From Laspinema palackyanum D2c (GTDB lineage Bacteria; Cyanobacteriota; Cyanobacteriia; Cyanobacteriales; Laspinemataceae): 64,000 nt of DNA. The stretch lies in the NCBI RefSeq assembly GCF_025370875.1, contig NZ_JAMXFD010000004.1, positions 196,777-260,776 on the forward strand. Reading direction: 5' to 3'. Made by a program: the position numbers and the translations under genes. The notes beneath the pieces were generated by a model. It saw only the letters and a list, made by a program, of their open reading frames with translations. It did not search any database and was not told where the DNA came from. This document shows, one piece after another, positions 126-41,194 of the stretch (position 1 is the stretch's first letter; every line of letters begins with the position of its first letter).

Positions 126-1859
126 TTAAAACAGAAAATATCGCTGGGCCAAGGGCAACACTTGTGCCGGTTCACAGGTGAGTAATTGACCATCCGCCCA
201 AACTTGATAGGTTTCTGGATCTACCTCAATATAAGGCAGGGTCTCATTTAATTTCATATCCCGTTTCCCCACCTTGCGCGTGTCCGAAACGGCAATAGCT
301 GGTTTTCGCAAACCTAACTGAGTTGGTATTTCTAACTCCAATGCTGCTTGGGAGACAAATGTAAAAGATGTGGCAGTCCGAGACCCTCCAAAACTGGCAA
401 ACATCGGCTGAGAATGGATCGGTTGCGGAGTCGGAATACTGGCATTGGCATCTCCCATTTGGGCGTAGGCGATCGCCCCCCCTTTGATCACCAGTTCCGG
501 TTTCACCCCAAAAAATGCCGGACGCCACAAGCATAAATCCGCCAGTTTACCTTCTTCAATCGACCCCACATAATTAGAAATCCCGTGGGCAATTGCGGGA
601 TTAATCGTATATTTGGCAATATAACGTCGCGCCCGGAAATTATCCTGTTCTGTTGTACTGGGAATCCCATCTTTGCGGTCATCCGGGGACAAAAACCCGC
701 GCTGTACCTTCATTTTATGGGCGGTTTGCCAAGTGCGAATGATGGTTTCTCCCACTCGTCCCATTGCCTGAGAATCGGAGGAAATCATACTAAACGCCCC
801 GAGGTCATGTAAAATATCCTCGGCAGCAATGGTTTCCCGACGGATGCGGGATTCAGCAAAAGCGACATCTTCGGGGATACTGCGATCGAGGTGATGGCAC
901 ACCATCAGCATATCCAGATGTTCTTCTAAGGTATTTACAGTATAAGGGCGGGTGGGATTGGTGGAAGAGGGGAGGACATTTTTTTGTCCGCAAACCTTGA
1001 TAATATCCGGGGCGTGTCCTCCGCCAGCCCCTTCCGTATGGTAAGTATGAATGGTGCGGTCTTTAAAGGCGGCGATGGTTTGTTCTACAAATCCCGCTTC
1101 ATTCAGGGTATCGGTATGGATGGCAACTTGCACATCATACTCATCGGCAACCGTCAGACAAGTATCGATCGCCGCTGGAGTGGTTCCCCAGTCTTCATGT
1201 AATTTTAATCCCATTGCACCGGCGAGAACCTGTTCCACGAGGGCGCGGGGTCTGCTGCTGTTGCCTTTTCCCATAAATCCGAGATTCACAGGGAAGGCAT
1301 CGGCAGCTTGTAACATCCGGTGGATGTTCCAAGGTCCGGGGGTACAGGTGGTGGCATTCGTTCCCGTAGCGGGTCCGGTTCCCCCGCCTAACATGGTGGT
1401 AATTCCCGAGGCGATCGCCACCTCAATCTGTTGGGGACAAATAAAGTGTATATGGGCATCGATTCCCCCGGCAGTGAGAATCATCCCTTCCCCGGCGATC
1501 GCCTCGGTTCCTGGACCGATAATAATATCAACATGATCTTGGATATAAGGATTTCCCGCCTTACCAATTTTAAATATTTTGCCATCCCGGATTCCCACAT
1601 CGGCTTTAACCACTCCCCACCAATCGAGAATCACCGCATTGGTAATCACTAAATCCACCGCCCCGTTATCATTGGCAATGGGGGATTGTCCCATGCCATC
1701 GCGGATGACTTTTCCCCCGCCAAATTTCACTTCATCGCCGTAGGTGGTAAAGTCTTGTTCAACTTCAATAAATAATTCTGTATCGGCTAACCGAATGCGA
1801 TCGCCCACCGTTGGGCCATAAGTTTCCGCATAAGCGCGGCGGTCCATTTTATAACTCAT
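126..1859 (-). CDS. ureC: Urease alpha subunit (UreC). The six-frame ORF runs to 1904, but homology begins at [20 protein letters not shown], so the start is placed at 1859.
   Basis: Translation carries hallmark urease-alpha motifs ([75 protein letters not shown]). Protein length is about 577 aa. Confidence 0.9.
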
Positions 1860-2120
1860 TGACGTTCCCTCACTCCATTCTCGCCCATCATTTCTGGGTT
1901 CCAATTAGTTTATCCCATTTTAGGGAGAATTAAACCGGCGTTAGTGCTGTTGAGAACAGACGGGAGTAAAACAGCGGAATAAAGCTACCAAAATTCCCAA
2001 CAATCGATGACATCAACCGGGCGATCGAGATGCAGATTTTAGAGTAAACACCCCACACCCTTGCGGCTGGGGGTGTTTGTCAACCTCCGAAAACTGGATT
2101 GGCTATCAGTGCTAATCGGG

Positions 2121-4169
2121 TTAATTCCAGTTCCCAATCAGGGTAAACGCAGACCAAAAATAAGGGTGAGATAGGTTTATCGTTTTTTGTTCCCTCAATT
2201 CCGGGGGTAGGGGAACGGTTTTGCCATTCGATAGAACTAACATCCCATTTTCTATGCGAACCTCTCCCCTTAACAGCGCCAGTTGGGTTTGCCGTAAAGC
2301 TTCGGCTTTCAGTGGTTTTTCCCCTAATTGGGAATAAAATTCACTCATTAATCCCAGAGTTCCTGCATCGCTGACATACCAGAAACTGGCTAAGGATGCC
2401 TTAGCCCCAGAAAGTACAGCTAACCCCGCAAATCCCAACTCAGCCTCTGTATCTCCCACTGCGGTCCGACAGGCACTTAGGGTTAATAGTTCAATGGGAG
2501 GACTCTGGGAGGTATTCCACCCGAGTTCCGTGGCTAAGTCTCGAATTTGATTGAGTCCGACTCGGCTATCAAAAAACGTGATATAAGAGTTATCTAAATT
2601 TCCCCCTTGAAATTCGGCATGGGTTGCTAAATGGATAATTCCAAAGCGTTTTTCCTGGTTAATTTGTCGGAAATTAGCGGCAGTGAATTGTTCATTCAGA
2701 AAGACATTTCCCTTCCAGGGAGCGCTCACAATATTTTGCAATTCAGTCGGCACCGCAGGGAGGGGATTGAGGTCTTGAAAAATAGCAGAACCCATCCCTA
2801 ATACTTCTCGGTTCCGGATATCAGAATAGGTGACATCAGTTAAGCCAAAACTGGGGACTAAAGCAACGGCATATTTTTCTAATAAAAACTGTTCCCCATC
2901 ATGCAAGGCCACCAGGGGAAGGGTTCTCAACCCAGAATCCATTGAAAAAACTAAAGTTTCAATCCCATTGGCTTCCAGTTGTGCTTCCATTGGAGCAATT
3001 AGCGACTGATAAAGTGATTGGGCGATCGGTAAGTAACTTTTACTGTTGAGCCTTCGGGGATTAGTCAGTTCCGATCGCAAGTTTTGCACCTGTTCAAGAA
3101 GCTGTTCCCGCACGACATTGGGTACCGTTTCGCGAACCGCTACATCCGTGGTTCTCTCAATCAGTCCTTGGGCTAAATCCGCCGAAGCCACTAAGTCAGA
3201 ACTGCCCCCCGATACTCGAAAATTCTGGGGAAAAATCATCACCAGTTCTAATTGGTCCGCTAACGCTGAGACATAAATAAATGAACTCTTGTTACCCGTC
3301 GCTTGCCACAAATCATACAAGGTTTGAGCAATATCATCGGGAGTTGCGGTTTCCCCAAATAACTCCACTTCTAAATAATTGCTAAACTCCATTGCCTGAT
3401 ATTCTTCCAACATTTGAACCGCCACCCCAATATCAGCCGCAGCTAACTGAGTTTCATAACCCGGGCGATCAACTTCTTGGTCCGATAGACTACTCAAGGG
3501 CTGTGCTTCTCCCGTTGTGCTGGGCTCACCTTCGAGAATTTGACCCTCTATGGAATTGGTACTTTCAGTTGTGGGGTCGGGTTCTGGATTATTCTCGCTC
3601 ACCGGAGGAGGAATTTCCTCCTCCAGGGGAATCTCTGGATTCTCGGGGATGACAAGCGGGCCCGTGGGTTCGGGGGACTGAATGTTAATCGGTTCTTGGG
3701 TTTGAACGGGAATCGGTGTCAGCACTTCCCCTGGACTGTCAACAGGGATTACTGGGGTATCTCCAGGTGGTGTGTCTGTGGGAGTTTCTGGGGGAGTTTC
3801 TGTGGGAGTTTCTGCGGGAGTTTCTGTGGGAGTTTCTGTGGGAGTTTCTGCGGGAGTTTCTGCGGGAGTTTCTGCGGGAGTTTCTGCGGGAGTTTCTGCG
3901 GGAGTTTCGGTGGGAGTAGGTAGAGGGGTGATGCTTCCTGTGGGTGCGATCGTTGGCGGTGGCGGTAGCGGTTCCTCCGGTAGCGGTTCCTCCGGTAGCG
4001 GTTCCTCTGGTAGCGGTTCCTCTGGTAGCGGTTCCTCTGGTAGCGGTTCCTCTGGTAGGGGTCCCGTGACATCGGACTGGTTTCCCGTCTGGGTGATGGC
4101 AGGATCAGCAGCGATCGCCACCAATGTCATAGCCAGAAACAATTTCATCCATCCCTTAAACAGCTTCAT
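2121..4169 (-). CDS. Secreted CHAT-domain (caspase-like) peptidase. Has an N-terminal signal peptide, a long Pro/Glu/Thr-rich repetitive linker and a C-terminal CHAT domain.
   Basis: Signal peptide MKLFLAMTLVAIAA. Repeats (PEEPL)x7 and ([AT]ETP)x~12. C-terminal region carries the CHAT His/Cys dyad context (IIHLATHAEF ... LLTLSACRTAVGD). Confidence 0.8.
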   Translation of the reverse strand: MKLFKGWMKLFLAMTLVAIAADPAITQTGNQSDVTGPLPEEPLPEEPLPEEPLPEEPLPEEPLPEEPLPPPPTIAPTGSITPLPTPTETPAETPAETPAETPAETPAETPTETPTETPAETPTETPPETPTDTPPGDTPVIPVDSPGEVLTPIPVQTQEPINIQSPEPTGPLVIPENPEIPLEEEIPPPVSENNPEPDPTTESTNSIEGQILEGEPSTTGEAQPLSSLSDQEVDRPGYETQLAAADIGVAVQMLEEYQAMEFSNYLEVELFGETATPDDIAQTLYDLWQATGNKSSFIYVSALADQLELVMIFPQNFRVSGGSSDLVASADLAQGLIERTTDVAVRETVPNVVREQLLEQVQNLRSELTNPRRLNSKSYLPIAQSLYQSLIAPMEAQLEANGIETLVFSMDSGLRTLPLVALHDGEQFLLEKYAVALVPSFGLTDVTYSDIRNREVLGMGSAIFQDLNPLPAVPTELQNIVSAPWKGNVFLNEQFTAANFRQINQEKRFGIIHLATHAEFQGGNLDNSYITFFDSRVGLNQIRDLATELGWNTSQSPPIELLTLSACRTAVGDTEAELGFAGLAVLSGAKASLASFWYVSDAGTLGLMSEFYSQLGEKPLKAEALRQTQLALLRGEVRIENGMLVLSNGKTVPLPPELREQKTINLSHPYFWSAFTLIGNWN
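3780..3912. repeat. In-frame 12-bp tandem repeat (GGGAGTTTCTG[TC]), about 11 units, encoding the ETPA/ETPT repeats of the CHAT protein.
   Basis: Perfect 12-bp periodicity visible in the sequence. Candidate variable-number tandem repeat (VNTR). Confidence 0.85.
3964..4056. repeat. In-frame 15-bp tandem repeat (GGTAGCGGTTCCTC[CT]), about 6 units, encoding the PEEPL repeats of the CHAT protein.
   Basis: Perfect 15-bp periodicity visible in the sequence. Confidence 0.85.
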
Positions 4170-5264: not shown

Positions 5265-5470
5265 TAGTGGCGAAGCTAAACAATAAAATACCCCTTCGAG
5301 GATTGTACCCGTTCTGATCTGCAAAATCACATTTTCTTTTCACTGAACTGAGGACAGTTAGGTTGCCCCTTCATCTTTTAGGGCAATCAGTTTAGTTAAA
5401 AATACTTATTTTTTCTCTCACCTCCGAGCAAAATAGGATTAGGGAACTCCAAAAAATAAAATCACCAAAA

Positions 5471-5535
5471 CGTTCGTAGTGACTCCTTGATTGAGTCATT
5501 TTTAGAGTAACCCCTGAAGGGGTTACTACGAAAAT
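5471..5535. repeat. Composite hairpin element in the MVP upstream region (GTGACTCCTTGATTGAGTCA and GTAGTAACCCCTGAAGGGGTTACTACGAA). Member of the dispersed hairpin-repeat family.
   Basis: Two perfect stem-loops. The outer arms GTAGTAAC/GTTACTAC are shared with copies at 8494, 19190, 27040, 61461 and 62925. Confidence 0.7.
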
Positions 5536-5721
5536 TCGGATGATTTATTTTTTGTAATTCCCTTAGCAATTGGACCCATTTGGAATCCAGCGATCGCCGT
5601 CATTCATCTAGGGTGATTTCTACCTGGGCAATCGCCTGATCGAAATCACTTCATCCCTGAAATCCTTGTTTATAGTAGAACTATCCTATCACCTATTCTC
5701 TGCGTAGAGAATATTCAAAAC

Positions 5722-8370
5722 ATGAGTAAACCCGATCAACTCTCCGAAAATCTCACCTTAAACTCGGATTTAGCCAGTGGAGTGATTCGTCTTAAACCCC
5801 AGGAATTTATTCATGTTTTAGATAATAATACGGGAATTACTCGCCTAGAAGTCGGCCCCCAAACGATTACCCTGCGAGATGGGGAACGACTTATCTTAAA
5901 ACCCCAACCCGCCATTGTTGTTCCCCCACGCCATTATTGCATCGTTGCCAATCCAGTCATGGTGGATGAAAATGGCGCACCCCTCACCGACCCTCGGGGA
6001 CAAATCCGACTCCGTTATGGCGATCGGGAAATTCGTTTATCCCAAGAACCCTTTCCCCTATATCCAGGGGAAGAACTTGCAGAAAGTGTCACCCAATTGC
6101 AAGTCGTCGAAACCAATCAAGCCTTGCGATTGCGCGCCTTACGGGATTTTAGCGAGACCCGGGCAATCCCCGGGGAAACTGTTCAAACCCAAATGATTGA
6201 GCGGGTTGCTGGAGATGAATGGCTATTTGAAGGACCCGGAACCTACATTCCTCGGGTAGAAGTGGCGATCGTTAAAACCGTCCAAGCCACTATTATTAAA
6301 ACCAATCAAGCCCTGCGATTATTCTCCCGTCAAAACTGCATCGATCGCCAGGGAATTCCCCGCCGCGCCGGAGAAGAATGGTTAGTACGAGAAGAAGGAG
6401 CTTATTTACCGGGCATTGATGAAGAAATCCTCGGTTTAATTGAGGCTTATGTCTTAACCGAGCGCAAAGCCTTGCATCTCAAAGCCAAACGCAGTTTTAC
6501 TGACATTTTTGGACGGCAACGGAAAGCCGGAGATGAATGGTTAGTTACCTTAGAAGATGCAGAAATTCATATTCCCGATGTCTATGAACAAGTCGTGGGG
6601 GAAGTCCAAGTCACCACATTGAATGACCGAGAATGGTGTATCGTCGTAGACCCCATCGATCGCCAAGGTAAACCCCAATTTGGGATGAGGGAAGTCCGAC
6701 AAGGGCGTATTACCTTCTTTTTACATCCCGGAGAATCCCTCCACAACGGCATCCAAAAAGTCTATGTGCTAGGGGAACAGGAAGCCTTGTTACTCCGGGC
6801 TTATGAAGCTTTTACCGAAGGAACCCCAGAGAACCCGATTCATCACCAACCCGGGGATTTATGGATGATTCATGGTCCCCGGGATTATATTCCTCCGGTA
6901 CAAGTCGAAGTCATCGAAACCCGCAAAGCGATTCCCTTAGATAAAAATGAAGGAATCTATGTGCGAGATATTCAAAATGGGGAACTGAAACTGGTGAGTG
7001 GGCCCCAAGCCTATCTGTTAGCCCCCCATGAAGAACCTTGGGAAAAAGAGTTACCCCCAGTGGTGGAAGAGTTGCTGCAACGCAAAAGTGACCCATTAGG
7101 CGATCGCGGGGAATATAGCGGCAGTGGTGAGGAAACCCGGGGACGAACCCAGAATCAGCGCAAACAACGGGATAAAACTCGTGCGGTTGTCTTTCATATT
7201 CCTCAAAATGCCGTGGTGCAAATTCACGACTATAAAGAACGAACTGCCCGGAATGTATTCGGTCCTGATTTAGTCATGTTAGGACCCGATGAAGCCTTTA
7301 CCGTGTTAAGTTTATCGGGGGATAAACCCAAACGACCCAATGCGATTAAATCGTTAGCTTTATTGTTGGGTCCGGATTTCATGACGGATATTTTCACCGT
7401 GGAAACTTCGGATCATGCGCGACTGCAATTACAATTATCTTATAATTGGTATTTTGAAGTCGATAAAAATAACGAAGAACAGACGGAGAAATTATTTCAA
7501 GTTCCCGATTTTGTCGGCGCTGCTTGCAAGGCGATCGCCTCCCGAGTGCGCGGTGCCGTTGCCGGAGTCCAATTCGATGAATTCCACCGCAACTCCGCCC
7601 GCATCATTCGTCAAGCCGTCTTTGGCGTCGATGACGAGGGACATATTCGGGAAGACTTCCGATTTCGGTCGAATAATCTCGTCATCACCAACATCGACAT
7701 TCAATCCGTCGAACCTGTAGATGAAGAAACCTTAAAAAGCCTGCAAAAATCCGTACAAATTGCCATTCAAATCACCACCGACGCCCAAGAAGCTGCGGCA
7801 AGACATGATGCCGAACGCATCGCCCAACAAGCCAAAGCCAGACTCGAAAGACAGGCGATTGTAGACAAAAGTGCCGCCGAAGCCGAACGCCGCAACCTGT
7901 TGGAATTAGAAGCAGAAAACGCCGCCATTTCCTCCACGGGACAAGCCACCGCCGAAGCCCGCGCCAAAGCCGAAGCCGCGCAGATTCAAGGGCAATTACA
8001 AGTGAATTTAGCCAGCCAAGAAGCCGAAGCCAACCGCATCCGCGCCGAAGTCGAACTCGCCCAACTGCGATCGCGCCAAGAAGCCGAACTCGCCCATCAA
8101 CAAGCCCTCACAAACCTAGAGATAGAAAAAGCCCAACGGATGGCGGAAATTACCAGTACCGAATTCGCCCAAAAAGTAGCTGCATTAGGACCGGAAACCC
8201 TGCGGGCGATCGCTCAAGCCGGACCGGAAATGCAAGCCCGACTCTTAGCGGGATTAGGTCTACAAAGTGTGCTCATTACCGACGGCAAAAGCCCGATTAA
8301 TTTGTTCAATACCGCCAATGGCTTAATCGGAGGTATGCCCTCTAATCCAGGGGGAAATGGGAGAGAATAG
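5722..8370 (+). CDS. Major vault protein (MVP) homolog, full length (N-terminal vault repeats, shoulder, C-terminal cap-helix coiled coil).
   Basis: 882-aa ORF. Long stretches match MVP motifs I recognise from metazoan MVP: [129 protein letters not shown]. Ala/Glu-rich heptad coiled coil at nt 7780-8110. Confidence 0.9.
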
Positions 8371-8493
8371 ACCTAATAGGGAATCCGGTTGTCAAAGTCT
8401 ATAAAAACCTGCACCCGTAGAGGGTTCAAACTCGCGGACATTAGCCCGCAAACCAAGAGGAAATCTGCCGCACAAGTCATCCGCCCATCTTCT

Positions 8494-8712
8494 GTTTGTA
8501 GTAACGACTTCAGTCGTTACCGCGTTACTTGGCGTCAGCCAAGTAACGCCCACCCTGGGTTTGCTCGTGTTATGGCAGGAGCCATAACACTCTTGGCAAC
8601 GACTAAAGTCGTTACTACAAACAAGGAGGAAAGCTGCCGCACAAGTCATGCACCCCTCTGAGATTTAAACTCCAGTCCTCGAATGTTTGTAGTAACGACT
8701 TCAGTCGTTCAT
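8494..8712. repeat. Composite cluster of palindromic hairpin repeats immediately downstream of MVP. Contains three GTAGTAACGACTTCAGTCGTTAC-type units, an 11-bp-stem hairpin (CGTTACTTGGC-GTCA-GCCAAGTAACG), a 10-bp-stem hairpin (GTGTTATGGC-AGGA-GCCATAACAC) and a direct repeat CTGCCGCACAAGTCAT x2.
   Basis: Read directly from the sequence. The ORFs 8389-8661(+) and 8392-8649(-) are mirror-image translation artefacts of this structure. Confidence 0.8.
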
Positions 8713-13219: not shown

Positions 13220-14092
13220 TTGGAGAGGCGATCGGGCTTATAGGAAGATGCTATCTCCTTGAATCACTATACCTTCGCTATGCGGCTTCGCGTGCCGTCG
13301 GTGCATCACATCTTTCTCGCTTCTTCCATGATAATCTGATGTAGAAGCGCTACAGAGTTGATTTGCATTTTTTTAACCCAATCAATACTTCTGTATAAAG
13401 TCATTTAATAATCTACCTTTTTCACAGTAAGCCTATCCATCCTCACATTTTTCCCTCATGATTAAGGGGCCGATCGCTCAGTAGTAACATTCCTCTCAAT
13501 TGACGGGAGTGCGCCAGGGCCATTTTATCGATAAAAACAATTTAGAGAAAATTAGGGTATCTTGGCGCGATTCCTCTCTATCCCGGGGTAGATATTGAAA
13601 AATTTCTTAATTTCACTTAAACGAGAAATTTAAGTGAAATTATCTCTGAAATCTTTAAATAGGAGCGGATAAAATACAGAGGGAGTGATTTTTTTTGCTA
13701 AATCAATCTATCAAATATCCCGGTATTGTCACATTTAAGTAAGAATCATCCGCTCCCAGTTCATGGACTCACCCTTGAAAAAAATGGGTTTTCCATCCCC
13801 CGGATTTTTGGGGAGGACTGCCGGGGACTTTTCTTTATTATATCTCTAAAGTTATTGTGCTGCATGGATTTGATGGTTTTTATCGGGAGGATTATTTGAC
13901 CGATCGCCCCCTTCATCCGGGCGATCGCAATCCCTTGAATCCCCCACACAGAACTATTTCTGATAGAGAATAGGCCCCGCTATCCCAGGAATTTTGACAA
14001 ATTTTTCGCGGGAGTGGTCAAATTGAAAACCATCGTGTAACATTACTTCATATCTCGATATTTCGATTCTTCACTTATTAAGGAAAAACCTG

Positions 14093-14695
14093 ATGAAGTC
14101 TAAATTTTGGAACGGTTTCAACAAAAAAGTTGCTCTCTTTTTGGGTGTTGCAGGGACAAGTTTACTGATGGGATTGCCTGTGGTGGCAGGGGTTAGCACC
14201 GCAGCAGATAAGATGACCGATTCTAATGAGGCGATCGCTCAATCTGGGACTCAAACCCCCGCGAGCACAATGGAAACGAGTCAACAGACAATTGCTGACA
14301 TTGCTGCGGGTAGCGAATCCTTCTCCACCCTCACTACCGCTTTAGAAGCTGCCGGTTTAACCGATACCCTCTCCGGTGAAGGTCCCTTCACCGTGTTTGC
14401 ACCCACCGATGAGGCATTTGCCGCTTTACCCGAAGGCACTTTAGAGCAGTTATTACAGCCGGAAAACCGCCAGCTTTTGGTTCAAGTTTTAACCTATCAT
14501 GTCGTAGAGGGTTCAGTCATGTCTGGGGATTTGAGCACCACGCAAGTTCCCAGCATTGAAGGACGTTCCATCAATGTGACAGTGGGTGACGATGGCGTTA
14601 TGGTCAATAGTGCTAACGTGGTTCAAGCCGATATCCAAGCCAGTAACGGCGTGATTCATGTGATTGATAAAGTAATTCTGCCGCCTCAAATGTAG
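14093..14695 (+). CDS. Secreted fasciclin (FAS1) domain protein.
   Basis: Signal peptide, then a FAS1 signature (FTVFAPTDEAFAALPEGTLEQLL ... VLTYHVVEG ... NGVIHVIDKVILP). Confidence 0.8.
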   Translation: MKSKFWNGFNKKVALFLGVAGTSLLMGLPVVAGVSTAADKMTDSNEAIAQSGTQTPASTMETSQQTIADIAAGSESFSTLTTALEAAGLTDTLSGEGPFTVFAPTDEAFAALPEGTLEQLLQPENRQLLVQVLTYHVVEGSVMSGDLSTTQVPSIEGRSINVTVGDDGVMVNSANVVQADIQASNGVIHVIDKVILPPQM

Positions 14696-14819
14696 GAAAA
14701 TTTGTCCTAAAGGTAGCGACAATTTACTGCATTAAACCCAACGCTTGAGTCAATTGGGTTGGGGGTTTAGCTATGGAATGAGAGAGCTAAACTCCCTTTT
14801 TCCCCTGAAATGACACCGT

Positions 14820-15398
14820 TTACTTGGATAAATTTTCCCAATCTTCCCGCAAAATGGCATACAGTTTCATATCATCAAATCTGCCTTTGCTAAACATCTG
14901 TTGGCGGAGGATTCCTTCATATTTCATGCCAACTTTTTCCATCACCCTTGCGGAGGGGTGATTAGGCAGTTTACATCGCGCCTCAATCCGGTTTAAGTTA
15001 GTTTCCTGAAAGCCAAAGGCGAGGACAGCTTTTACAGCTTCGGGCATATATCCTTTTCCCCAATAGCGTCGGGATAAAGCATAGCCGATTTCAGCGTGAT
15101 GATCAGCTTGAACCCAGTTGACGAAACCACAAGTGCCGATTAATTTGCAGTCGCCTTTATGGATAATGCCCCAATCACCACTTTTATGGGTCTGATATTT
15201 TTCGAGGATAGAATTTAAAAAAATATAGCTGTCTTCTAGGGATTGATGGGGGTGCCAGGTTGTGTATTGGGCTACTTCAGGGTCTGAGGCATACTCAAAC
15301 AGATCCGGTGCATCCTCTCGGCTCATTTTTCTAAGAATGAGCCGATCGCTTTCCAGGGTTGGTAAGTCAGGATATAAAGTTAGAGTCATGAGGATCAT
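14820..15398 (-). CDS. GNAT-family N-acetyltransferase (RimJ/RimL-like).
   Basis: LILRKMSREDAPDLFEYASDPEV...IGYALSRRYWGKGYMPEAVKAVLAFGF...NLNRIEARCKLPNHPSARVMEKVGMKYEG. Confidence 0.8.
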   Translation of the reverse strand: MILMTLTLYPDLPTLESDRLILRKMSREDAPDLFEYASDPEVAQYTTWHPHQSLEDSYIFLNSILEKYQTHKSGDWGIIHKGDCKLIGTCGFVNWVQADHHAEIGYALSRRYWGKGYMPEAVKAVLAFGFQETNLNRIEARCKLPNHPSARVMEKVGMKYEGILRQQMFSKGRFDDMKLYAILREDWENLSK

Positions 15399-15489
15399 CT
15401 CCTAACAAAGTCTCACGGTATGATAAGAGTGCCGATCGCCCTCCATCTGGGCGACTGTCACTCAATTTGAGTTTGAGGTAAAACTGGCA

Positions 15490-15786
15490 TTATGGATTGA
15501 CATATTCTAAGCTTTTGAGGACTTTAATTTGTTCCTCTAACTCTAAAAATAGTTTATATTCTCCCGCCCATTCTAAATATTCTAAATCTCCCCCATCCAT
15601 ATCTTCTGCCGTCAGTCTATTTTTCAACTGATGGGAGGGTTGATTATATTTATCTTCAAACGCCTGAAGTCTTTTTTTTGTAAATTTCAGATTTTTTTCA
15701 ATGCGATCTATTTCAGCAGCGATCGCTCTTTTTATTAAGTCCGTCACTCGGTCTGGATTATCCGTTTTGAGAATAATTTCGGCCAC
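15490..15786 (-). CDS. Hypothetical 98-aa protein (charged, probably helical).
   Basis: ORF only. Co-directional with and upstream of the GNAT gene. No recognisable domain. Confidence 0.4.
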   Translation of the reverse strand: MAEIILKTDNPDRVTDLIKRAIAAEIDRIEKNLKFTKKRLQAFEDKYNQPSHQLKNRLTAEDMDGGDLEYLEWAGEYKLFLELEEQIKVLKSLEYVNP

Positions 15787-15962
15787 ATTCTTACCTCTTC
15801 ATGCTCTGCTGTTCCAGTATAAACCAATAGATCCTCGCTGAGGCGACTACTCCCGCCTAGGGTCTTTGGAGGCCGCGATCGCCACTGGCTTCAACTCAGA
15901 CTACCATTACGGGGTCTCTACCAGTACAATAAAACTGACCCATTACCGTTAACTGGTTTCCG

Positions 15963-17177
15963 ATGAAGCTGAGTCTTTGCACCATTGTCAAAAACGAAGA
16001 AGCTACCCTTCCCAAATGTCTTGCCAGCGTCAAGGATCTGGTAGATGAAATGGTGGTTCTTGATACCGGATCCACCGATCGCACCGTAGAAATCGCCCAA
16101 GAGTTTGGGGCTGATGTTCATCACTTCGACTGGTGCAATGATTTTGCTGCGGCGCGAAATGAATCCCTTAAATATGCTCAAGGGGACTGGATTCTCGTAT
16201 TAGATGCAGATGAAGTGTTAACCCCGGAAGTTGTCCCCCAAATCAAAGAATTGATTAATGGAAGTGGCAACGCCCAACCGAAACCCTATCTTTTAATGAA
16301 CTTAATTCGTCAAGAAGTCGGGGCGCAACAATCCCCTTATTCCCTGGTTTCACGCTTGTTTAGAAATCAACCGGGAATCCAGTTTGAGCGGCCCTATCAT
16401 GCCATGATTGATGATAGTGTGCAGCGGATGTTACAGCAGCAATCCAATCAATGGCAGGTGGGTTCGTTGATGGAGGTGGCAATTTTACATGAAGGGTATC
16501 AAGCCGAAGCGATCGCCTCCCGAGATAAATTGACCCGGGCCCGAGAATCAATGGAATCCTATCTCGCCGCCCATCCCAACGATGCTTATACTTGCAGCAA
16601 ACTCGGGGCCTTGTATGTGCAAACCGGAGAGATTAAACGGGGGATGCAGTTATTAAAACTGGGATTAGCCGCCAGTACAAGGTTAGAACCCCTGGTTGTG
16701 TATGAACTGCATTATCATTTGGGAATCGCCTATACGCGCCAGCAGAAACTGAGCAAAGCCAAAGCGCAGTATGAAAAAGCGGTTGCCCTGCCGATTTTAG
16801 AACCCATCAAATTGGGGGCGTATAATAACTTGGGGAACCTCCTGCTGGAAACCGGAAATCTCACCGGGGCGATCGCCACCTATCAAAAAGTCTTACAAAT
16901 CGACCCCTCCCTGAGTTCCGCCTATTTTAACCTGGGAATTGCCTTGAAAGAAAAAAAGCAAATTCCCCTGGCGATCGCCGCCTATTACAAAGCCATTCAA
17001 CTCAATCCCAACTATGCCGAAGCGTACCAAAATCTTGGCGTTGCCTTACTCAAAGGGGGGAATATTTTAGATGGATTAGAAGCCTTTCGACGGGCCGTTT
17101 CCCTCTATGAACAACGGAAATCCCCTGCGGGTCCAGCGTTGCGCCAAAGTTTAAAAGACATGGGATTTAAAATCTGA
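15963..17177 (+). CDS. Family-2 glycosyltransferase with C-terminal TPR repeats.
   Basis: N-terminal GT2 motifs (LSLCTIVKNEEATL, VVLDTGSTDRT, ARNESLKYAQGDWILVLDADE). C-terminal half has repeated TPR consensus (AYNNLGNLL, AYFNLGIAL, AYQNLGVAL). Confidence 0.8.
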   Translation: MKLSLCTIVKNEEATLPKCLASVKDLVDEMVVLDTGSTDRTVEIAQEFGADVHHFDWCNDFAAARNESLKYAQGDWILVLDADEVLTPEVVPQIKELINGSGNAQPKPYLLMNLIRQEVGAQQSPYSLVSRLFRNQPGIQFERPYHAMIDDSVQRMLQQQSNQWQVGSLMEVAILHEGYQAEAIASRDKLTRARESMESYLAAHPNDAYTCSKLGALYVQTGEIKRGMQLLKLGLAASTRLEPLVVYELHYHLGIAYTRQQKLSKAKAQYEKAVALPILEPIKLGAYNNLGNLLLETGNLTGAIATYQKVLQIDPSLSSAYFNLGIALKEKKQIPLAIAAYYKAIQLNPNYAEAYQNLGVALLKGGNILDGLEAFRRAVSLYEQRKSPAGPALRQSLKDMGFKI

Positions 17178-17308
17178 TAGGAACGCTCAAATTCCGTGGA
17201 ACCTATTGTCCGGCGGTTCTTCCGGTTCATCCGTGGGGTTGATGCGTGGGGATGAGGCCATACAATAAAAAGAATCAATAACCTGAGTTTCAACAGCGAG
17301 GAAAACAG

Positions 17309-18214
17309 ATGATACCTGGAGTTTTACCCGGAGATTTAGCCTGTGGTTGCCTGAGTACACTGATCCCAGAAGAACCCGACCCTGGGGCGGTTCCCGGACC
17401 GACAGCACCGGGAGCTCCCCCGGGTGAAGCCTTAAACCCGGCGGACTTTCTGGACCTCCAGGATGACGCCCTGCGCCCTGATGATTTTAGGCTGAGTCCG
17501 GGACAACTCGCTGAACGCCCAGGGGGAGTAAGAGCTTTAGCCGGGGATGATACGGTCATTGGTGCCACATCAAATGAACTGATCAACGGCAATTTGGGCA
17601 CCGATCTCTTATTTGGCCGAGGGGGTAATGATACCTTGCGCGGTGGACAGGATAATGATGCCGTTTATGGAGAAGAAGGGGATGATATTCTCAATGGCAA
17701 TCGCGGGGATGATTTAGTCCTCGGAGGTCGAGGAAACGATGTCGTGCGAGGGGGTCAAGACAACGATTTGCTGATAGGTGGGGAAGGAAATGATACCCTA
17801 ATCGGTGATTTCGGACTCGATCGCATGGTGGGGGGAAGTGGTACGGATTTATTTGTCCTTCGCACCGACGCCGCCTCCACCAATCCCGAACAAGCGGATA
17901 TTATTTTGGATTTTAATAACGATCGCATTGGACTCACCGAAGGCGTAACAGCCAATGATTTGGTATTTCAACCCTTTACTCGGGATTTACCAGCCGAACT
18001 TGATATTTTGCAAACCTATACGACCGATGATGTTTTGGTGTTAAGTGAATTGTCCCCAGGCCAACTGGACCCGAACGACAATGGACAGATAGAAGGGACA
18101 TTAATTCAACAGGAGTCCACAGGTAGAGTGTTAGCAGTTGTGCTCAATGCCACCGACAGCGAACTGCGAAGGGCAATCACCCCAGTACCGCCAGAGATTC
18201 TAGCCCTAGGGTAA
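17309..18214 (+). CDS. RTX / hemolysin-type calcium-binding repeat protein.
   Basis: Tandem nonapeptide repeats GGxGxDxLx (GGNDTLRGGQDNDAVYGEEGDDILNGNRGDDLVLGGRGNDVVRGGQDNDLLIGGEGNDTLIGD). Start codon is uncertain. Confidence 0.7.
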   Translation: MIPGVLPGDLACGCLSTLIPEEPDPGAVPGPTAPGAPPGEALNPADFLDLQDDALRPDDFRLSPGQLAERPGGVRALAGDDTVIGATSNELINGNLGTDLLFGRGGNDTLRGGQDNDAVYGEEGDDILNGNRGDDLVLGGRGNDVVRGGQDNDLLIGGEGNDTLIGDFGLDRMVGGSGTDLFVLRTDAASTNPEQADIILDFNNDRIGLTEGVTANDLVFQPFTRDLPAELDILQTYTTDDVLVLSELSPGQLDPNDNGQIEGTLIQQESTGRVLAVVLNATDSELRRAITPVPPEILALG

Positions 18215-18241
18215 CTTGAATAGGCGATCGCCCTCTTCCAG

Positions 18242-19105
18242 TTATTCCGGAGGCAATTCTAGGGGAATTTGACCTAACAATCCCTTGCGAAAATCATTGA
18301 GAATTTGCCGCGCCGCCCGTTCCACATCGCCTTCATATCGGGATTCGGCAAAATTATGGAGATAATCTTCCCCCGTCATGGGGAGAGGGTCAAGTTTATA
18401 GCGCGATCGCAACGCCTCCGGTGGCATCCATCCGGTCCCAATTGCCTCAATCTCTTTCACCATATCCACAAATGCCGATGCCACCCGTTGATTGTCATAA
18501 GCTGCCTCACCAATATCATCACAAATGGCTAACTTTAAAGCAGCATCTTGGTCCTCTAACTTACTGGGAATCACCCCAGGGGCATCCAACAGTTCCAGTT
18601 CATCGGAAATCCGCACCCAACGCAGTTGCTTAGTCACCCCCGCACGTCGGGCGCTTTCCACCACACGACGCCCAACTAAGCGATTAATCAACGCCGATTT
18701 GCCCACATTAGGAAACCCAATCACCACCGCACGAACAGCGCGAGGGCGCATCCCGCGATCGAGACGACGTTGATTCAGGGCAATCCCCGCCTCTTTTGCC
18801 GCCTTAGATATCGCCTTGATCCCCGTCCCATCTTGAGCATTGGTAAAATACGGCGTTTCTCCCTGACGTTGAAACCACAGATGCCAGCGATCGCGCAGGG
18901 GGGGCAAAATCGTATCCACCCGATTAATAATCAAAACTCGGCTTTTACTCCCCACCCACTGCGGCACCTGGGGATGATGGGTAGACAAAGGAATCCGCGC
19001 ATCCCGGACCTCCAACACCACATCCACCAGCTTCAATTGTTCCGCCAGTTGTTTTTCCGCCTTAGAAATATGGCCGGGATACCATTGAATGTCAGGAGTT
19101 GTCAT
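18242..19105 (-). CDS. rbgA: Ribosome biogenesis GTPase A (YlqF/RbgA), a circularly permuted GTPase.
   Basis: MTTPDIQWYPGHISKAEKQLAEQLKLVDVVLEVRDARIPLS ... VVIGFPNVGKSALINRL ... LLDAPGVIP. The six-frame ORF extends to 19180 through a low-complexity PSSPSSPS leader, so the start is placed at the conserved MTT (19105). Confidence 0.8.
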   Translation of the reverse strand: MTTPDIQWYPGHISKAEKQLAEQLKLVDVVLEVRDARIPLSTHHPQVPQWVGSKSRVLIINRVDTILPPLRDRWHLWFQRQGETPYFTNAQDGTGIKAISKAAKEAGIALNQRRLDRGMRPRAVRAVVIGFPNVGKSALINRLVGRRVVESARRAGVTKQLRWVRISDELELLDAPGVIPSKLEDQDAALKLAICDDIGEAAYDNQRVASAFVDMVKEIEAIGTGWMPPEALRSRYKLDPLPMTGEDYLHNFAESRYEGDVERAARQILNDFRKGLLGQIPLELPPE

Positions 19106-19120
19106 TGTTAAATACTTGAT

Positions 19121-19188
19121 AAATGCAGGATGGGGAGATGGGACAGATGGGGAAGATGGGGAGGATGGGGGAGAGACCATCCTCCCCT
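19121..19188. repeat. STRR-like short tandem repeat tract of octamers (GATGGGGA)n.
   Basis: GGATGGGGAGATGGGACAGATGGGGAAGATGGGGAGGATGGGGGAGAG. The same motif family recurs at 49859-49930 and 54596-54830. Contains four or more GGGG runs (G-quadruplex potential on the plus strand). Confidence 0.75.
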
Positions 19189-19282
19189 GTTCGTAGTAAC
19201 GACTTCAGTCGTTTCCGGCTTAACCAAGTCGAGGATTCAAACCATAAAGCTTAGGATGCTACATTTTAAGGAACCGGAAGAA

Positions 19283-19460
19283 CGACTGAAGTCGTTACTA
19301 CGAACAGAAGAGGGATAACGACTGAAGTCGTTACTACGAACAGAAGAGGGATAACGACTGAAGGCGTTACTACGAACAGAAGAGGGATAACGCCTGAAGG
19401 CGTTACTACGAACTAAGAGAAGATAACGACTGAAGTCGTTACTACAAACTAAGAGGGGAG
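19283..19460. repeat. Tandem array of five 36-bp units, each a 20-bp palindromic hairpin (AACGACTGAAGTCGTT flanked by GTAGTAAC-type arms) plus a conserved 16-bp linker (ACGAACAGAAGAGGGATA).
   Basis: Units begin at 19283, 19319, 19355, 19391 and 19427. Unit 4 carries a compensatory double change (CGCC/GGCG for CGAC/GTCG) and unit 3 is the hybrid. An isolated unit lies at 19190-19214. The ORF 19237-19494(-) with RSNDFSRYPSSV repeats is a translation artefact. Confidence 0.85.
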
Positions 19461-19469
19461 AAACTTGCC

Positions 19470-19883
19470 CTACGGTACAATCAGCACGGGACAAGGGGCC
19501 AGATTAATCACCCGGTTGGTGACACTATCGGCGAGACCCTCTTCCGTCAACCCGATCCCGCGACAACCCATAATCACGAGATCCGCATTGATTTCGTCCG
19601 CTACATCGCAAATGATAAAGGCAGGTTTTCCTTCCCGTTCAATGGTTTCCGCTGTGATACCTAGCTTAGAAAACATTGACTGAGCATTTTTGAGTAATTC
19701 TGCGATCGCCTCCGGGGTCATCACCCGTTCTGGAGGTGGCGGTTCCTCTCCCTCCACCTCAACCTCATTCACAGACAGCAAAATTAAGCGCGAGTTGAAG
19801 GTTTTGACCATTTGGGCCACCGTATCCGCCGCTTCACGGGACTCGCGACTTTCATCGATCGGAAAAAGAACAGTTTTAAACAT
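19470..19883 (-). CDS. Universal stress protein (UspA family).
   Basis: MFKTVLFPIDESRESREAADTVAQMV ... DLVIMGCRGIGLTEEGLADSVTNRVINLAPCPVLIVP. Confidence 0.8.
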   Translation of the reverse strand: MFKTVLFPIDESRESREAADTVAQMVKTFNSRLILLSVNEVEVEGEEPPPPERVMTPEAIAELLKNAQSMFSKLGITAETIEREGKPAFIICDVADEINADLVIMGCRGIGLTEEGLADSVTNRVINLAPCPVLIVP

Positions 19884-20077
19884 AGCAGCCGTGTTTAGGA
19901 CGCACTCAACGATAAAATGTTTACGGCAAACCTTCCAGATAGAGAGAGACTCATCTATCGTGACCCCATTAATGAGGTCAGTTTTGGGGTACTGCCTCGG
20001 CGCAGGAGTTAAATCCCACGCGCTATAAGCCGATTTTCTAGAAAACAGACCAAAAAACGCAATTAGGAGGGATCTTC

Positions 20078-21283
20078 ATGCCCAAGAAAACTGTAGCAAA
20101 TTTGTCAGCCTCAGACCTATCCGGTAAACGGGTGTTAGTTCGTGCTGACTTTAATGTACCCCTCGACGATGCTGGTAACATCACCGATGATACCCGGATT
20201 CGGGCTGCATTGCCGACGATTCAAGATTTAACGGGTAAAGGGGCCAAAGTTATTCTGTCCAGCCACTTTGGACGTCCCAAGGGTCAGGTGAATGAAAAAA
20301 TGCGCCTCACCCCAGTTGCCAAGCGCCTCTCGGAATTATTGGGTCAAGAAGTCATCAAATGCGATGACTGCATTGGCGATGAGGTGGCAAGCAAGGTCCA
20401 AGGCATGGAAAACGGCCAAGTTGCCTTACTGGAAAATGTCCGGTTCTATGCTGAGGAAGAGAAAAATGACCCAGAATTTGCCAAAAAGCTGGCTTCTGTG
20501 GCCGATTTGTATGTGAATGATGCCTTTGGAACGGCCCACCGTGCCCATGCTTCCACCGAAGGGGTGACCCATTACCTGAGTCCCTCGGTTGCTGGGTCTT
20601 TGATGGAGAAAGAACTGCAATACCTCAAAGGGGCGATCGAAGAACCTCAGCGTCCTCTGGCGGCGATTATTGGCGGTTCCAAGGTTTCTAGCAAAATTGG
20701 CGTCATCGAAACCTTGTTAGAGAAGTGTGACAAACTTCTCCTCGGTGGTGGGATGATTTTCACCTTCTTAAAAGCGCGCGGCATCAGCGTGGGGAATTCC
20801 TTGGTGGAAGATGACAAGCTAGAGTTAGCCAAGTCATTGGAAGCGAAGGCAAAAGAACGCGGCGTGGCGATGTTATTGCCAACCGATGTGGTGATTGCAG
20901 ACAAATTTGGTGCCGATGCCAATACGCAAATTGTCAGCGTGGAAAATATCCCGGATGGTTGGATGGGATTGGATATTGGTCCTGATTCCGTAAAAACCTT
21001 CCAAGACGCTCTTGCCGATTGCAAGACGGTGATTTGGAATGGACCGATGGGTGTGTTTGAAATCGACAAATTCGCCAAAGGAACCGAGGCGATCGCCCAT
21101 ACTTTATCCGAACTGACCCCCAAAGGCACTACCACCATCATCGGTGGTGGCGACTCCGTGGCAGCCGTGGAAAAAGTCGGATTGGCCGATAAAATGAGCC
21201 ACATTTCCACCGGCGGCGGTGCCAGCTTAGAATTACTCGAAGGCAAGGAACTCCCCGGAGTTGCCGCCTTAGATGAAGCCTAA
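20078..21283 (+). CDS. pgk: Phosphoglycerate kinase.
   Basis: 401 aa with canonical PGK motifs ([46 protein letters not shown]). A strong RBS AGGAGGG sits 8 bp upstream. Confidence 0.95.
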
Positions 21284-21367
21284 GTATTGGGATATTTAGA
21301 CCGGGTGGGATACCCAGTCCTAGGGTGTAACGCTGCCTGAACCGAGGATAACTCTTTCAGGAGTTGA

Positions 21368-21395
21368 GTAGGGGTAATTCATCCATTACCCCTAC
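21368..21395. terminator. Hairpin (GTAGGGGTAAT-TCATCC-ATTACCCCTAC) between the convergent pgk and 21424(-) genes. Candidate bidirectional terminator.
   Basis: 11-bp perfect stem. Only a weak T tract follows (CTTTAG), so confidence is modest. Confidence 0.4.
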
Positions 21396-21423
21396 TTTAG
21401 CCCGGGAACGGTAAACTTGAATA

Positions 21424-21651
21424 TTAGAGTTGAGATTCATTTTTTGCCGTTTCAAAGGTCTGAACTTTTTCATAAAGACTATCAACGGTTTCCTGGGTAA
21501 AAAGTTGGTCTTTGGTTTTTAAATAATCCCCTTCTCCCAGTTTAATAGCTGCTACAAACCGAGCATAATTCAAGGGTTCTAGGTGATTCGATAAGATATT
21601 TAAGGCTTGTTGAATAACTTTTTGTTCGGTTGGTCTTTTAATTTTCATCAT
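21424..21651 (-). CDS. Hypothetical 75-aa protein immediately downstream of, and overlapping, the PIN-domain gene. Possible cognate partner (antitoxin-like) in reversed gene order.
   Basis: ORF overlaps the PIN gene by 14 bp, which suggests translational coupling. No recognisable domain. Confidence 0.4.
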   Translation of the reverse strand: MMKIKRPTEQKVIQQALNILSNHLEPLNYARFVAAIKLGEGDYLKTKDQLFTQETVDSLYEKVQTFETAKNESQL

Positions 21652-22075
21652 CCATCTCCAAAATAAAATCAGCGGGATTCATGACGAGTAGGTTTAGGGT
21701 TTTACACCGATTAATTAATCGTTTATCACAGGTTATAAAATAATCGCTCTGGCTCGCTTCAGCGCAGGCAACGTGCAAGGCATCAATGGCTTTGAGTCCC
21801 ATTTTTTCTAAGGTTTGGGCGCGTTGTCGAATCGACTCGTTGGCGATTTGCCGGAATGTGGCCCGACTCAGGTAAAAGTCAACGAATTTTGCCCGCTCAG
21901 AATTAGAGTTTCGGCTATTTTCATATTCTAAAACGTTGGAGTTCACTAATTCTACTTGCTGATCTTGAATCAGTTGTAAAATCAGCAGGACTGCTTGGGT
22001 TTCCAGGAATATCTTAACTTGAGACTGGTCATCAAAGGGGCGATTGTAAGCGATGGTATCAAGGTAAAGCCGCAT
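21638..22075 (-). CDS. PIN-domain protein (VapC-like ribonuclease).
   Basis: N-terminal LYLDTIAYNRPFDD (first acidic residue of the PIN fold) and C-terminal AIDALHVACAEASQSDYFITCDKRLI (the PIN Asp-containing motif). Confidence 0.65.
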   Translation of the reverse strand: MRLYLDTIAYNRPFDDQSQVKIFLETQAVLLILQLIQDQQVELVNSNVLEYENSRNSNSERAKFVDFYLSRATFRQIANESIRQRAQTLEKMGLKAIDALHVACAEASQSDYFITCDKRLINRCKTLNLLVMNPADFILEMDDEN

Positions 22076-27014: not shown

Positions 27015-27039
27015 TTCGTGGAGGATGGGGGTCTTCCCA

Positions 27040-27300
27040 GTTCGTAGTAACGACTTCAGTCGTTCTCTTTCTTAGTTCGTAGTAACGACTTCAGTCGTTC
27101 TCTTTCTTAGTTCGTAGTAACGACTTCAGTCGTTCTCCCCCTTGGGAAGGGATAAGGTGACTCGGACCTTTAATATTTAAGATGCGACCTTTAACGAACT
27201 GAAGAAACGACTGAAGTCGTTACTACGAACATAAAGAAACGACTAAAGTCGTTACTACAAACATTGGAAACGACTGAAGTCGTTACTACGAACAAAGGGA
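27040..27300. repeat. Composite palindromic repeat structure: three tandem ~36-bp hairpin units (TTCGTAGTAACGACTTCAGTCGTTCTCTTTCTTAG), a ~55-bp centre, then three units in inverted orientation (AAACGACTGAAGTCGTTACTACGAACA...).
   Basis: Read directly. Lies between the convergent 3' ends of the ABC gene and the WecB-like gene. Confidence 0.85.
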
Positions 27301-31300: not shown

Positions 31301-31660
31301 TTAGCAGAAATGACCCCCGGAGAAAAGAATTTTGCTTTGCGGGTGGAACATTTGCTGAATAAAATTCAAGCACCGGAATACCGACAGGTAAATATTGAAA
31401 CTTTGATGGAACTCGCGGAAATTTGCGATCGCAACCCCGATTTACAGATTCAGGAATACATCGTCCTGGATGTATTAATTGGTCATGCGGTGCGATTAGC
31501 CTGGATTGAAGGTCATCCGGAACGAAGCGATTGCTATGATGAAGATAAAGCCTTGGCATGGCCTTCATTTTACAATACTTCCCCTTATGTTTGCGCCAGT
31601 TTTGTGGTGAAAGCATTCCGCTACCTGACCAAATTTGGCAAGGCGATCGCAGTCGGGTAA
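28310..31660 (+). CDS. Large glycoside-hydrolase-family-15 (glucoamylase-like) / phosphorylase-kinase alpha/beta-like protein.
   Basis: 1116 aa. N-terminal GH15-like domain ([24 protein letters not shown]...[20 protein letters not shown] ... [16 protein letters not shown]). The overall architecture matches the ~1100-aa phosphorylase b kinase regulatory-subunit homologs common in cyanobacteria. Confidence 0.75.
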   Translation: [1116 protein letters not shown]

Positions 31661-31920
31661 TTCAACCTTAGCACCCGTTGCAAAAACCGGCGGGGGATAA
31701 ATCCCCCGCCTCATAGCTAAAGTCGGTTGAAAACCGACTAAAAACACAATTAATTCAACCATATCATCCGTTGCAACAACCGGCGGGGGATAAATCCCCC
31801 GCCTCATAGCTAAAGTCGGTTGAAAACCGACTAAAGACACCATTTCATAAGACTTTCAGTCGGTTTCAACCGACTTAATTCTGTGAGGCGGGGGTTTTAA
31901 CCCCCGCCGGGTGTGGCAAC
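31661..31920. repeat. Two direct ~87-bp copies and one inverted ~70-bp copy of a double-hairpin element (GGCGGGGGATAAATCCCCCGCC + AGTCGGTTGAAAACCGACT).
   Basis: Copies at 31661-31747 and 31754-31840 (direct) and 31851-31920 (reverse complement). The ORF 31565-31843(-) with repeated LVGFQPTLAMRRGIYPPPV is an artefact of it. Confidence 0.85.
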
Positions 31921-41102: not shown

Positions 41103-41194
41103 TATAATTATTCGTTTCCGTCCCCTCTCTTGATGCTGTTAGCGAAGGATTCATCGCCCGTCAAGAACTGAAAAGACTGCTTGGGGGATTGCAA

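Follow-up and report, generated by a model that had tools for sequence, protein, structure and literature searches.

The tandem arrays of 36-bp period found in the cyanobacterium Laspinema palackyanum D2c are instances of an already described bacterial repeat, the repetitive extragenic palindromic (REP) sequence tagged with GTAG, and not a new kind of element. They were analysed in a stretch of 64,000 nucleotides (contig NZ_JAMXFD010000004.1, positions 196,777 to 260,776), hereafter the window. The units occur as single copies, as REP doublets forming hairpins (REPINs) and in head-to-tail arrays. We put at about 85% the probability that their enzyme partner is a REP-associated tyrosine transposase (RAYT, or TnpA_REP). 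The original prediction, made from the letters of the window, had recognized one dispersed family of hairpin units, which is borne out, and had listed mobile small elements among its possible natures. The latter is now the best-supported reading, the units being GTAG-tagged REPs of which an exact 21-mer flanks RAYT genes in other genomes.

Read from its tag, the unit is asymmetric and consists of 5'-GTTY-GTAG-T, a stem of 6-7 bp, a TTYA loop and the second stem arm. Its canonical form, GTTY-GTAG-T-AACGAC-TTCA-GTCGTT, measures 25 nt, with a 6-bp stem (G-C pairs at 3 of 6 positions) and a 4-nt loop. The tag (GTAG, or CTAC on the other strand) stands on a single side of the hairpin and is invariant 5' of the stem. 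Folding, as the original prediction had advised, gave -5.0 kcal/mol for the canonical hairpin as DNA (z -3.8) and -8.4 kcal/mol as RNA. The 32-nt perfect palindrome first given as the unit (TTCGTAGTAACGACTTCAGTCGTTACTACGAA) had no match in the window even at 3 mismatches. Nor did the advised comparison with Rfam yield a curated family: none matched the units in a scan of the whole window at the gathering threshold, and a scan of 19100-19520 at E <= 1 returned sub-threshold models of miRNA precursors, archaeal RNase P and CsrC only. The GTAG-REP survey describes extragenic stem-loops in which GTAG is left unpaired at one end, the stem measures 6-9 bp with complementary substitutions and the loop is short, including the cyanobacterial families GTAG-12, -15 and -16 (Di Nocera et al., 2013; PMC3733652). 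A short stem-loop (20-40 bp) with an unpaired GTAG on one side is what was found here.

The 25-mer AACGACTGAAGTCGTTACTACGAAC has 16 matches in the window at up to 3 mismatches, with 0 expected; 8 of the 16 are perfect and all lie within 2 differences of the consensus. A scan for the tag plus hairpin (GTAG, one base, 6-bp stem, 4-nt loop) detected 21 full copies, at 5476, 5509, 8498, 8598, 8689, 19193, 19281, 19317, 19353, 19389, 19425, 27044, 27079, 27114, 27206, 27238, 27269, 61469, 62931, 62960 and 62991, and about five further copies are degenerate (41214, 41248, 49929, 49959, 63025). All are placed in nine intergenic spacers, and each locus listed in the original prediction holds a member of the family. 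The predicted 36-bp array near 19283 was recovered by Tandem Repeats Finder as 4.9 copies of period 36 at 19281-19457, together with arrays at 27039-27137 (period 35), 27194-27294 (period 31) and 62908-63021 (period 60). Singles and inverted doublets coexist with three head-to-tail arrays (5, 3 and 3 units) as multi-copy, clustered and extragenic elements; array units form the majority of the full copies (11/21), and a scan for inverted repeats returned the pairs I3-I12. The canonical copies are placed as follows.

19281-19449, minus strand: five-unit head-to-tail REP array, period 36, with an 11-nt linker per unit.
19353-19377: unit 3 of the five-unit array, one arm changed (AACGAC..GGCGTT).
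19389-19413: unit 4 of the five-unit array, both arms changed (AACGCC/GGCGTT).
19189-19305: REPIN-type inverted doublet with outward tags, made of a REP at 19189-19213 (plus strand), a 67-nt spacer and the first array unit (19281-19305).
8494-8622: REPIN-type doublet with a structured spacer, made of a REP at 8494-8518 (plus strand) and a REP at 8598-8622 that reads tag-first on the minus strand.
8685-8709, plus strand: single REP unit.
27040-27134, plus strand: three identical REP units head to tail, period 35, beginning 26 nt past the stop of an open reading frame (ORF) for an ABC-ATPase.
27206-27293, minus strand: three REP units head to tail (periods of 32 and 31), in the opposite orientation to 27040-27134 and adjoining the 3' end of a WecG-family gene.
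61465-61489, plus strand: single REP unit overlapping the end of a photolyase-family ORF.

Both REPIN-type doublets fold, as single-stranded DNA, into long hairpins, as do the doublets of REPIN-RAYT systems. In the first (inverted repeat I3), the ends of the spacer are complementary (TCCGG/CCGGA) and the region 19185-19309 reaches -37.1 kcal/mol (z -10.6). The spacer of the second contains two conserved inner hairpins, GCGTTACTTGGC..GCCAAGTAACGC and GTGTTATGGC..GCCATAACAC, and the region 8490-8626 reaches -48.4 kcal/mol (z -12.3). This layout, with a REP and inner hairpins, was found again at many Laspinema and Oscillatoria loci, and plasmid records gave no match to the 8490-8626 doublet.

The stem varies freely provided that pairing is kept, as the original prediction had claimed from a few units. 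This was measured on the distinct sequences from the window and from fetched loci that present GTAGT, six bases and a TTYA loop (n = 70). Pairing was not a criterion for this set, an alignment selected on pairing having been rejected as circular. At least 5 of 6 Watson-Crick pairs form in 55 of the 70 sequences, and 88.1% of the stem cells are paired versus 65% in shuffles, a level reached by 0 of 500 shuffles; slid controls ranged from 14 to 69%. Changes on both sides were seen at all six stem pairs, giving subfamilies with complementary stem changes as in other GTAG-tagged REPs. GTAGT, T12, T13 and A15 are fixed in the set, but these columns are the selection criterion itself. An independent check of the loop is provided by the REPs standing beside RAYT genes selected on their protein (see below), of which 216 of 242 present TTCA or TTTA. 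In the five-unit array, the one-arm change announced for unit 3 and the two-arm change announced for unit 4 are read in the sequence: the hairpin of unit 3 is weaker (-2.3 kcal/mol as DNA, -3.4 as RNA) and that of unit 4 recovers (-6.3 and -10.5). Unit 3 had been seen as a half-converted intermediate, which is one possibility; as both the AACGCC/GGCGTT variant and the unit-3-type hybrid also occur in other genomes, a recombinant of two subfamilies is equally possible.

The link with a transposase comes from other genomes. An exact 21-mer of the unit (GTAGTAACGACTTCAGTCGTT) was scanned over one genome per species and found at no fewer than 120 loci, and RAYT queries were taken from the supplement of the GTAG-REP survey (PMC3733652). 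Among the 120 exact-21-mer loci listed, 6 contain a RAYT-like ORF: the 21-mer lies at most ~70 bp from it in L009, L067, L076 and L117, at both of its ends in L074 and ~535 bp away in L064. In cyanobacteria, RAYT genes flanked by the identical 21-mer are present in L064, L117 and L198, so that the arrangement typical of REPIN-RAYT systems, in which REPs of one family border their RAYT gene, exists for this family in other genomes. The NCBIfam model NF047646 (REP-associated tyrosine transposase) matched at 89.4 and 83.1 bits with a cut-off of 80, and database relatives from Allocoleopsis, Coleofasciculus and Nostoc are named RAYT. An independent test started from the protein alone, with 80 metagenome RAYT loci, 62 of which have at least 200 bp on both flanks. 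A REP of the same design stands upstream in 48 of these, downstream in 49 and on both sides in 45, and is absent from 10. Inside the first 200 bp from the gene, REP density reaches 8.06 per kb, versus 0.19 per kb farther away, a 42-fold enrichment. The commonest extended tags beside RAYT genes are GTTC-GTAGT and GTTT-GTAGT, and the stems vary from locus to locus.

Once aligned, the RAYTs exhibit NHYH, W-Y and NYIHYNP motifs, a length of ~198 aa and a Pro-rich N-terminus, and some of them contain in-frame REP insertions. The published TnpA_REP subclass 2.8 is characterized by an NHYH HuH motif, W[YH], YIHYNP, a length of ~199 aa and an N-terminus rich in Pro, with REP insertions in part of its members; it was described from 8 cyanobacterial proteins flanked by canonical 5' GT[AG]G REPs, and relatives in other phyla were already noted (PMC6006769). 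Judged by its motifs, the putative RAYT partner of the 21-mer REP in other genomes matches this subclass.

Some further features of these RAYT loci may be mentioned. The RAYT ORF of L064 (2746-3405) bears, at ~3040-3110, an in-frame insertion (EGLSPHYKQDKHACSKGFSPYEQ) that stands between the HuH motif and the Tyr motif. The L117 gene contains, at the corresponding place (7049-7067), a REP belonging to its own family (GTAGTGAGGAC...), and a Prochlorothrix RAYT (P0021) carries another insertion at this site. In five cyanobacterial assemblies (L064, L117, L212, L216, L217), the RAYT gene occupies a conserved chromosomal locus, with a DNA methylase on one side and, on the other, XisH/XisI or Uma2 genes and then a ResIII helicase. 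The 72-88% DNA identity of this region among the five suggests vertical inheritance within that cyanobacterial lineage. Plasmid records gave no match to the RAYT.

Comparison with relatives informs on the arrays. A cyanobacterial metagenome-assembled genome (L091) is syntenic with the window over 13786-21799 at ~90% identity. In its version of the 19189-19305 doublet, both 25-nt REP arms are identical to those of the window, against 7 differences over the 67 nt of the spacer, and the array has 2 units instead of 5. The comparison of array lengths suggested in the original prediction gave a difference, and it indicates that array length is labile while the REP arms are maintained. A metagenome scan with an exact 31-mer of the neighboring Usp gene, aimed at array lengths in further strains, gave no match.

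Hosts of the 21-mer among the matches listed include L. palackyanum, L. olomoucense, Oscillatoria sp. HE19RPO, Phormidium pseudopriestleyi and other cyanobacteria, as well as, unexpectedly, many Chloroflexota (Anaerolineae, Caldilineales, Chloroflexia) and a few Acidobacteriota and other phyla. Among the same listed matches, 130 of 213 canonical copies at cyanobacterial loci (61%) stand in head-to-tail arrays, of 2-11 units and periods 30-37, versus 2 of 101 (2%) in other phyla; these comparisons of array habit and across phyla rest on a non-random sample. The RAYTs adjacent to the 21-mer in different phyla are ~40-48% identical. A 21-mer identical across phyla beside such diverged RAYTs, in a unit whose stem is free to covary, hints at horizontal transfer. 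A recent transfer of REP and RAYT between phyla, plausibly in a shared habitat, followed by array expansion specifically in cyanobacterial hosts, may be proposed from these sequences as a tentative and rather doubtful scenario. The arrays might likewise represent a distinct, RAYT-driven mode of insertion next to self. If true, interphylum transfer would contradict the prevailing view that REPIN-RAYT systems are vertically inherited and lineage-specific, and among the present results only two could change views on REPIN-RAYT inheritance, namely the identity of the 21-mer across phyla and the dependence of the array habit on the host.

Several observations weigh against an assignment of the units to a RAYT. 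A tblastn search with three RAYT seeds detected no RAYT in the 64-kb window or in the fetched loci of the Laspinema clade, and the small ORFs of the window encode Usp, PIN, Uma2, GNAT and similar proteins, with no RAYT among them. Nine database RAYTs were traced to their contigs (P0054, P0033, P0028, P0077, P0017, P0108, P0138, P0002, P0005); all belong to other genomes and none to the Laspinema clade. Two protein searches, one of them with the RAYT of L164, whose flanks bear AACGAC-stem REPs, returned among their best 120 matches none labelled Laspinema, P. pseudopriestleyi or Oscillatoria HE19RPO. These searches covered a small part of the Laspinema-clade genomes. In addition, the share of head-to-tail copies in cyanobacteria is high, while such arrays are rare in most GTAG-REP families according to the survey (PMC3733652), and the standard REPIN model alone does not explain this dominance of arrays. 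Finally, cleavage, excision or insertion of the units was not observed.

Part of this evidence would suit fossil or independent miniature repeats without a dedicated RAYT, amplified by slippage, unequal recombination, gene conversion or another enzyme. Simple slippage can make head-to-tail arrays, no RAYT came from the window or the sampled DNA of the clade, and the survey reports that some genomes have REPs without an adjacent RAYT (PMC3733652). Such an origin is nevertheless unlikely in view of the small part of the Laspinema-clade genomes that was sampled, the near-identity of copies dispersed over nine spacers and the flanking of RAYT genes by the identical 21-mer in the three cyanobacterial loci cited above. 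Moreover, REP arms that are better conserved than their spacer between relatives argue for maintenance and not for decay. We favor GTAG-tagged REPs served by a RAYT, and infer that the partner gene is present in the genome of L. palackyanum D2c.

The regularity of the palindromic repeats, with periods of 31-36 in the window, also recalls arrays of clustered regularly interspaced short palindromic repeats (CRISPR) or binding sites for a protein, for instance a nucleoid-structuring one, which would not be transposase substrates; REP clusters of E. coli are reported to bind gyrase and IHF. However, the units also exist as singles and inverted doublets, and their linkers cannot be taken for CRISPR spacers since they measure 6-11 nt and are themselves repeated. 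The whole alternative is highly improbable. A CRISPR array as such was rejected, the unique spacers of CRISPR measuring ~26-72 nt and no cas gene being seen among the window ORFs scanned.

The original prediction had favored terminators or stability elements placed at 3' ends, often between convergent genes. A map of long ORFs, with Pfam support for most genes, indicates that 77.5% of the window is coding. Of the 40 intergenic spacers, 9 contain REPs, whereas the interior of ORFs is free of them, the sole overlap being at 61461-61472. The nine occupied spacers divide into 3 convergent, 3 tandem and 3 divergent, so no preference for 3' ends or convergent genes is seen in this sample. Two stop codons had been assigned to units. 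The one of the cry gene holds: the photolyase-family ORF 60006-61472 ends with a TAG (61470-61472) that is the TAG of the GTAG of the REP, and the extended tag AAACGTTCGTAG (61461-61472) encodes its last three residues, K-R-S, plus the stop. By contrast, the stop of the ABC protein at 27012 belongs to GCGTAGTTCGTGG, which precedes the first unit by 28 nt and resembles at best a piece of the tag.

Should the units act chiefly at the RNA level, they would be intrinsic terminators or 3' hairpins blocking exonucleases, spread by selection for that role. In five spacers (8494, 19425, 27040, 27269, 61465), the unit that comes first after the stop codon is oriented tag-first with respect to the upstream gene, the RNA hairpin has the energy given above (-8.4 kcal/mol), and a terminator scan flagged four units with a T-rich run after them, two of them in the 27040-27134 array. 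REPs of E. coli, moreover, are reported to stabilize upstream mRNA. A 3'-end bias is also reported for REP-rich genomes in the GTAG-REP survey (PMC3733652). However, the four flagged units are 4 of 12 in the two array regions scanned, under a loose rule (5 T in 8), and most units have no T-tract; the G+C-rich stem followed by a U-tract of intrinsic terminators is not what they present. Divergently transcribed genes border 3 of the 9 occupied spacers, up to 11 repeated weak hairpins are more than termination needs, and Rfam has no match for the units. Mismatches in the covariation set were G-U-compatible (23) and of C-A type (16) at similar frequencies, hence giving no strand-specific RNA signal. 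A role in termination would also leave unexplained the invariant unpaired GTAG and the 42-fold enrichment beside RAYT genes. As a primary explanation, a terminator or stability function is therefore not supported and appears improbable. An effect on transcripts is possible, given the tag-first orientation in five spacers, and would be secondary.

The following mechanism may be proposed for GTAG-tagged REPs of this family. Their partner RAYT would be a single-copy HUH/Y1 enzyme, related to the transposases of IS200/IS605 and acting on single-stranded DNA. When DNA becomes single-stranded, each unit would form its hairpin of 6-7 bp, and the enzyme would read the shape of the hairpin together with the GTAG left unpaired at the 5' base of the stem; the TTYA loop is probably read as well. 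By cutting and rejoining at the unit, it would copy REP doublets over time into new intergenic sites. Arrays would lengthen or shorten through slippage and unequal recombination or, alternatively, through repeated insertion beside a copy already present. Such recognition would leave the stem changeable as long as pairing, tag and loop are kept. The survey reports that GTAG REPs are thought to be mobilized by RAYTs and that, in E. coli, the RAYT cuts single-stranded REP DNA at its GTAG (PMC3733652).

Besides the canonical copies, the window contains variant units and a second family.

5441-5561: mixed-stem doublet, with a GACTCC unit at 5472-5497 tag-first on the plus strand and an AACCCC unit at 5509-5535 tag-first on the minus strand.
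41184-41306: degenerate mixed-stem doublet bounded by a terminal repeat (inverted repeat I20), units at 41210-41276.
62927-63015: AACCCC plus GACTCC doublet in two tandem copies (period 60), with a truncated unit at 63021-63035.
49929-49980, plus strand: two tandem units of a tag-less variant (GTTCAACGTCCCGACTTCAGTCGTT).
43162-43211: perfect inverted doublet (inverted repeat I23) whose units (GTAGGGTGGGCAATGCCCACC) form a second GTAG-tagged REP family, unrelated to the first.

The 5441-5561 doublet is bounded by an inverted terminal repeat of 27-29 nt (GGGAAYTCCAAAAAATAAA..CCAAA). In 41184-41306, one unit has no GTAG (GTTCAACGTCCCCCCTTCAGGGGTT) and the other has GGAG where GTAG is expected. 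The tag-less variant retains a 4-bp stem (-2.1 kcal/mol, no better than shuffles); in L052 and L103 its copies alternate with units of the canonical type. The arms of the second-family doublet are separated by 8 nt and fold at -29.8 kcal/mol (z -10.6); this doublet stands just 3' of the GcpE (ispG) gene.

An inverted terminal repeat of 27-29 nt (GGGAWTNCAAAAAATAAAWCAYCCAAA) in fact bounds three elements, 58089-58287, 5441-5561 and 41184-41306, and its exact sequence was present in 0 of 217 fetched loci. Inside the first of these, a tandem repeat of 62 bp contains tags of the GTATAG type and hairpins that have a TTCA loop and are longer; just upstream, at 58029-58052, a borderline Rfam match to CRISPR-DR28 (35.7 bits versus 35) probably corresponds to one more palindrome of this sort. 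Tandem repeats rich in G and of 7-9 nt, (GGGGARGAT)n, abut the tag side of REPs at 19129-19174 and 49854-49924 and recur beside the tag side in related genomes (e.g., L012, L013, L018, L052, L060 and L115). They may be a preferred insertion context for REPs, and recall reports of small cyanobacterial repeats inside heptamer repeats.

Other features of the window were noted as well. An ORF of 882 aa (5722-8370, plus strand) strongly matches domains of the eukaryotic major vault protein (MVP): Vault repeat at 6e-66, MVP shoulder at 2e-55 and Vault_2/3/4. After a gene of 1116 aa, the intergenic region 31658-31920 holds a 93-bp tandem repeat in two copies and an inverted partial copy, each with the hairpins GGCGGGGGATAAATCCCCCGCC and AGTCGGTTGAAAACCGACT. 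The Rfam match to 5_ureB_sRNA at 1418-1708 (plus strand, 87 bits) is antisense to the urease alpha-subunit ORF 126-1904 (minus strand) and most likely reflects the conservation of the urease coding sequence, not an sRNA gene. The edge of the window (1-122) holds 5.7 tandem copies of a 21-bp repeat, and tandem repeats of 12 and 15 bp at 3775-4062, inside the CHAT-domain ORF 2121-4169, would encode peptide repeats.

With these results, the arrays become a feature class that can be annotated in genomes of the Laspinema, Oscillatoria and Phormidium type, where they are likely causes of assembly breaks. Having 5 and 2 units in close relatives, they could also be used as strain markers. A REP design is now defined for the little-studied RAYT subclass 2.8, and single-stranded GTTCGTAGTAACGACTTCAGTCGTT, with its fixed GTAG and TTYA loop and its freely covarying stem, offers a clean substrate for biochemistry. 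A literature search with strings of the core sequence returned chance primer matches only, and the canonical consensus was not found in the papers searched. Among cyanobacterial repeats, the small dispersed repeats (SDR) described by Elhai et al. in 2008 from heterocyst-forming species are reportedly mobile palindromes of ~21-27 nt, often placed inside other repeats; the likeness is one of description and serves as a lead only.

The closest known systems are the GTAG-tagged REPs, with which the units share single, inverted, head-to-tail and clustered copies and the occasional overlap of a gene end (PMC3733652). The survey presents head-to-tail dimers as rare, whereas the dominant form here is the head-to-tail array, of up to 11 units and with linkers of 6-11 nt; the likeness to families GTAG-12, -15 and -16 is one of description. 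As in REPIN-RAYT systems, including that of Nostoc punctiforme, inverted doublets form long hairpins, tandem clusters occur and REP clusters stand immediately beside the RAYT gene, here in other genomes; the difference is that the majority of full copies in the window (11/21) are array units and not doublets (Bertels and Rainey, 2011; PMC3116915). The E. coli TnpA_REP also recognizes a hairpin with a 5' GTAG on single-stranded DNA (structure PDB 4ER8, cited in PMC6006769), and its catalytic motifs align with those of the RAYTs studied here, the protein being 37% identical to the reference RAYT of our alignment (P0040). Compared to the units of the window, however, E. coli REP stems are longer and bulged, and E. 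coli clusters alternate in orientation instead of running head to tail. Finally, the study of subclass 2.8 was based on 8 members (PMC6006769), whereas more than 1,100 relatives were found here, many of them in Chloroflexota, together with the cognate REP design.

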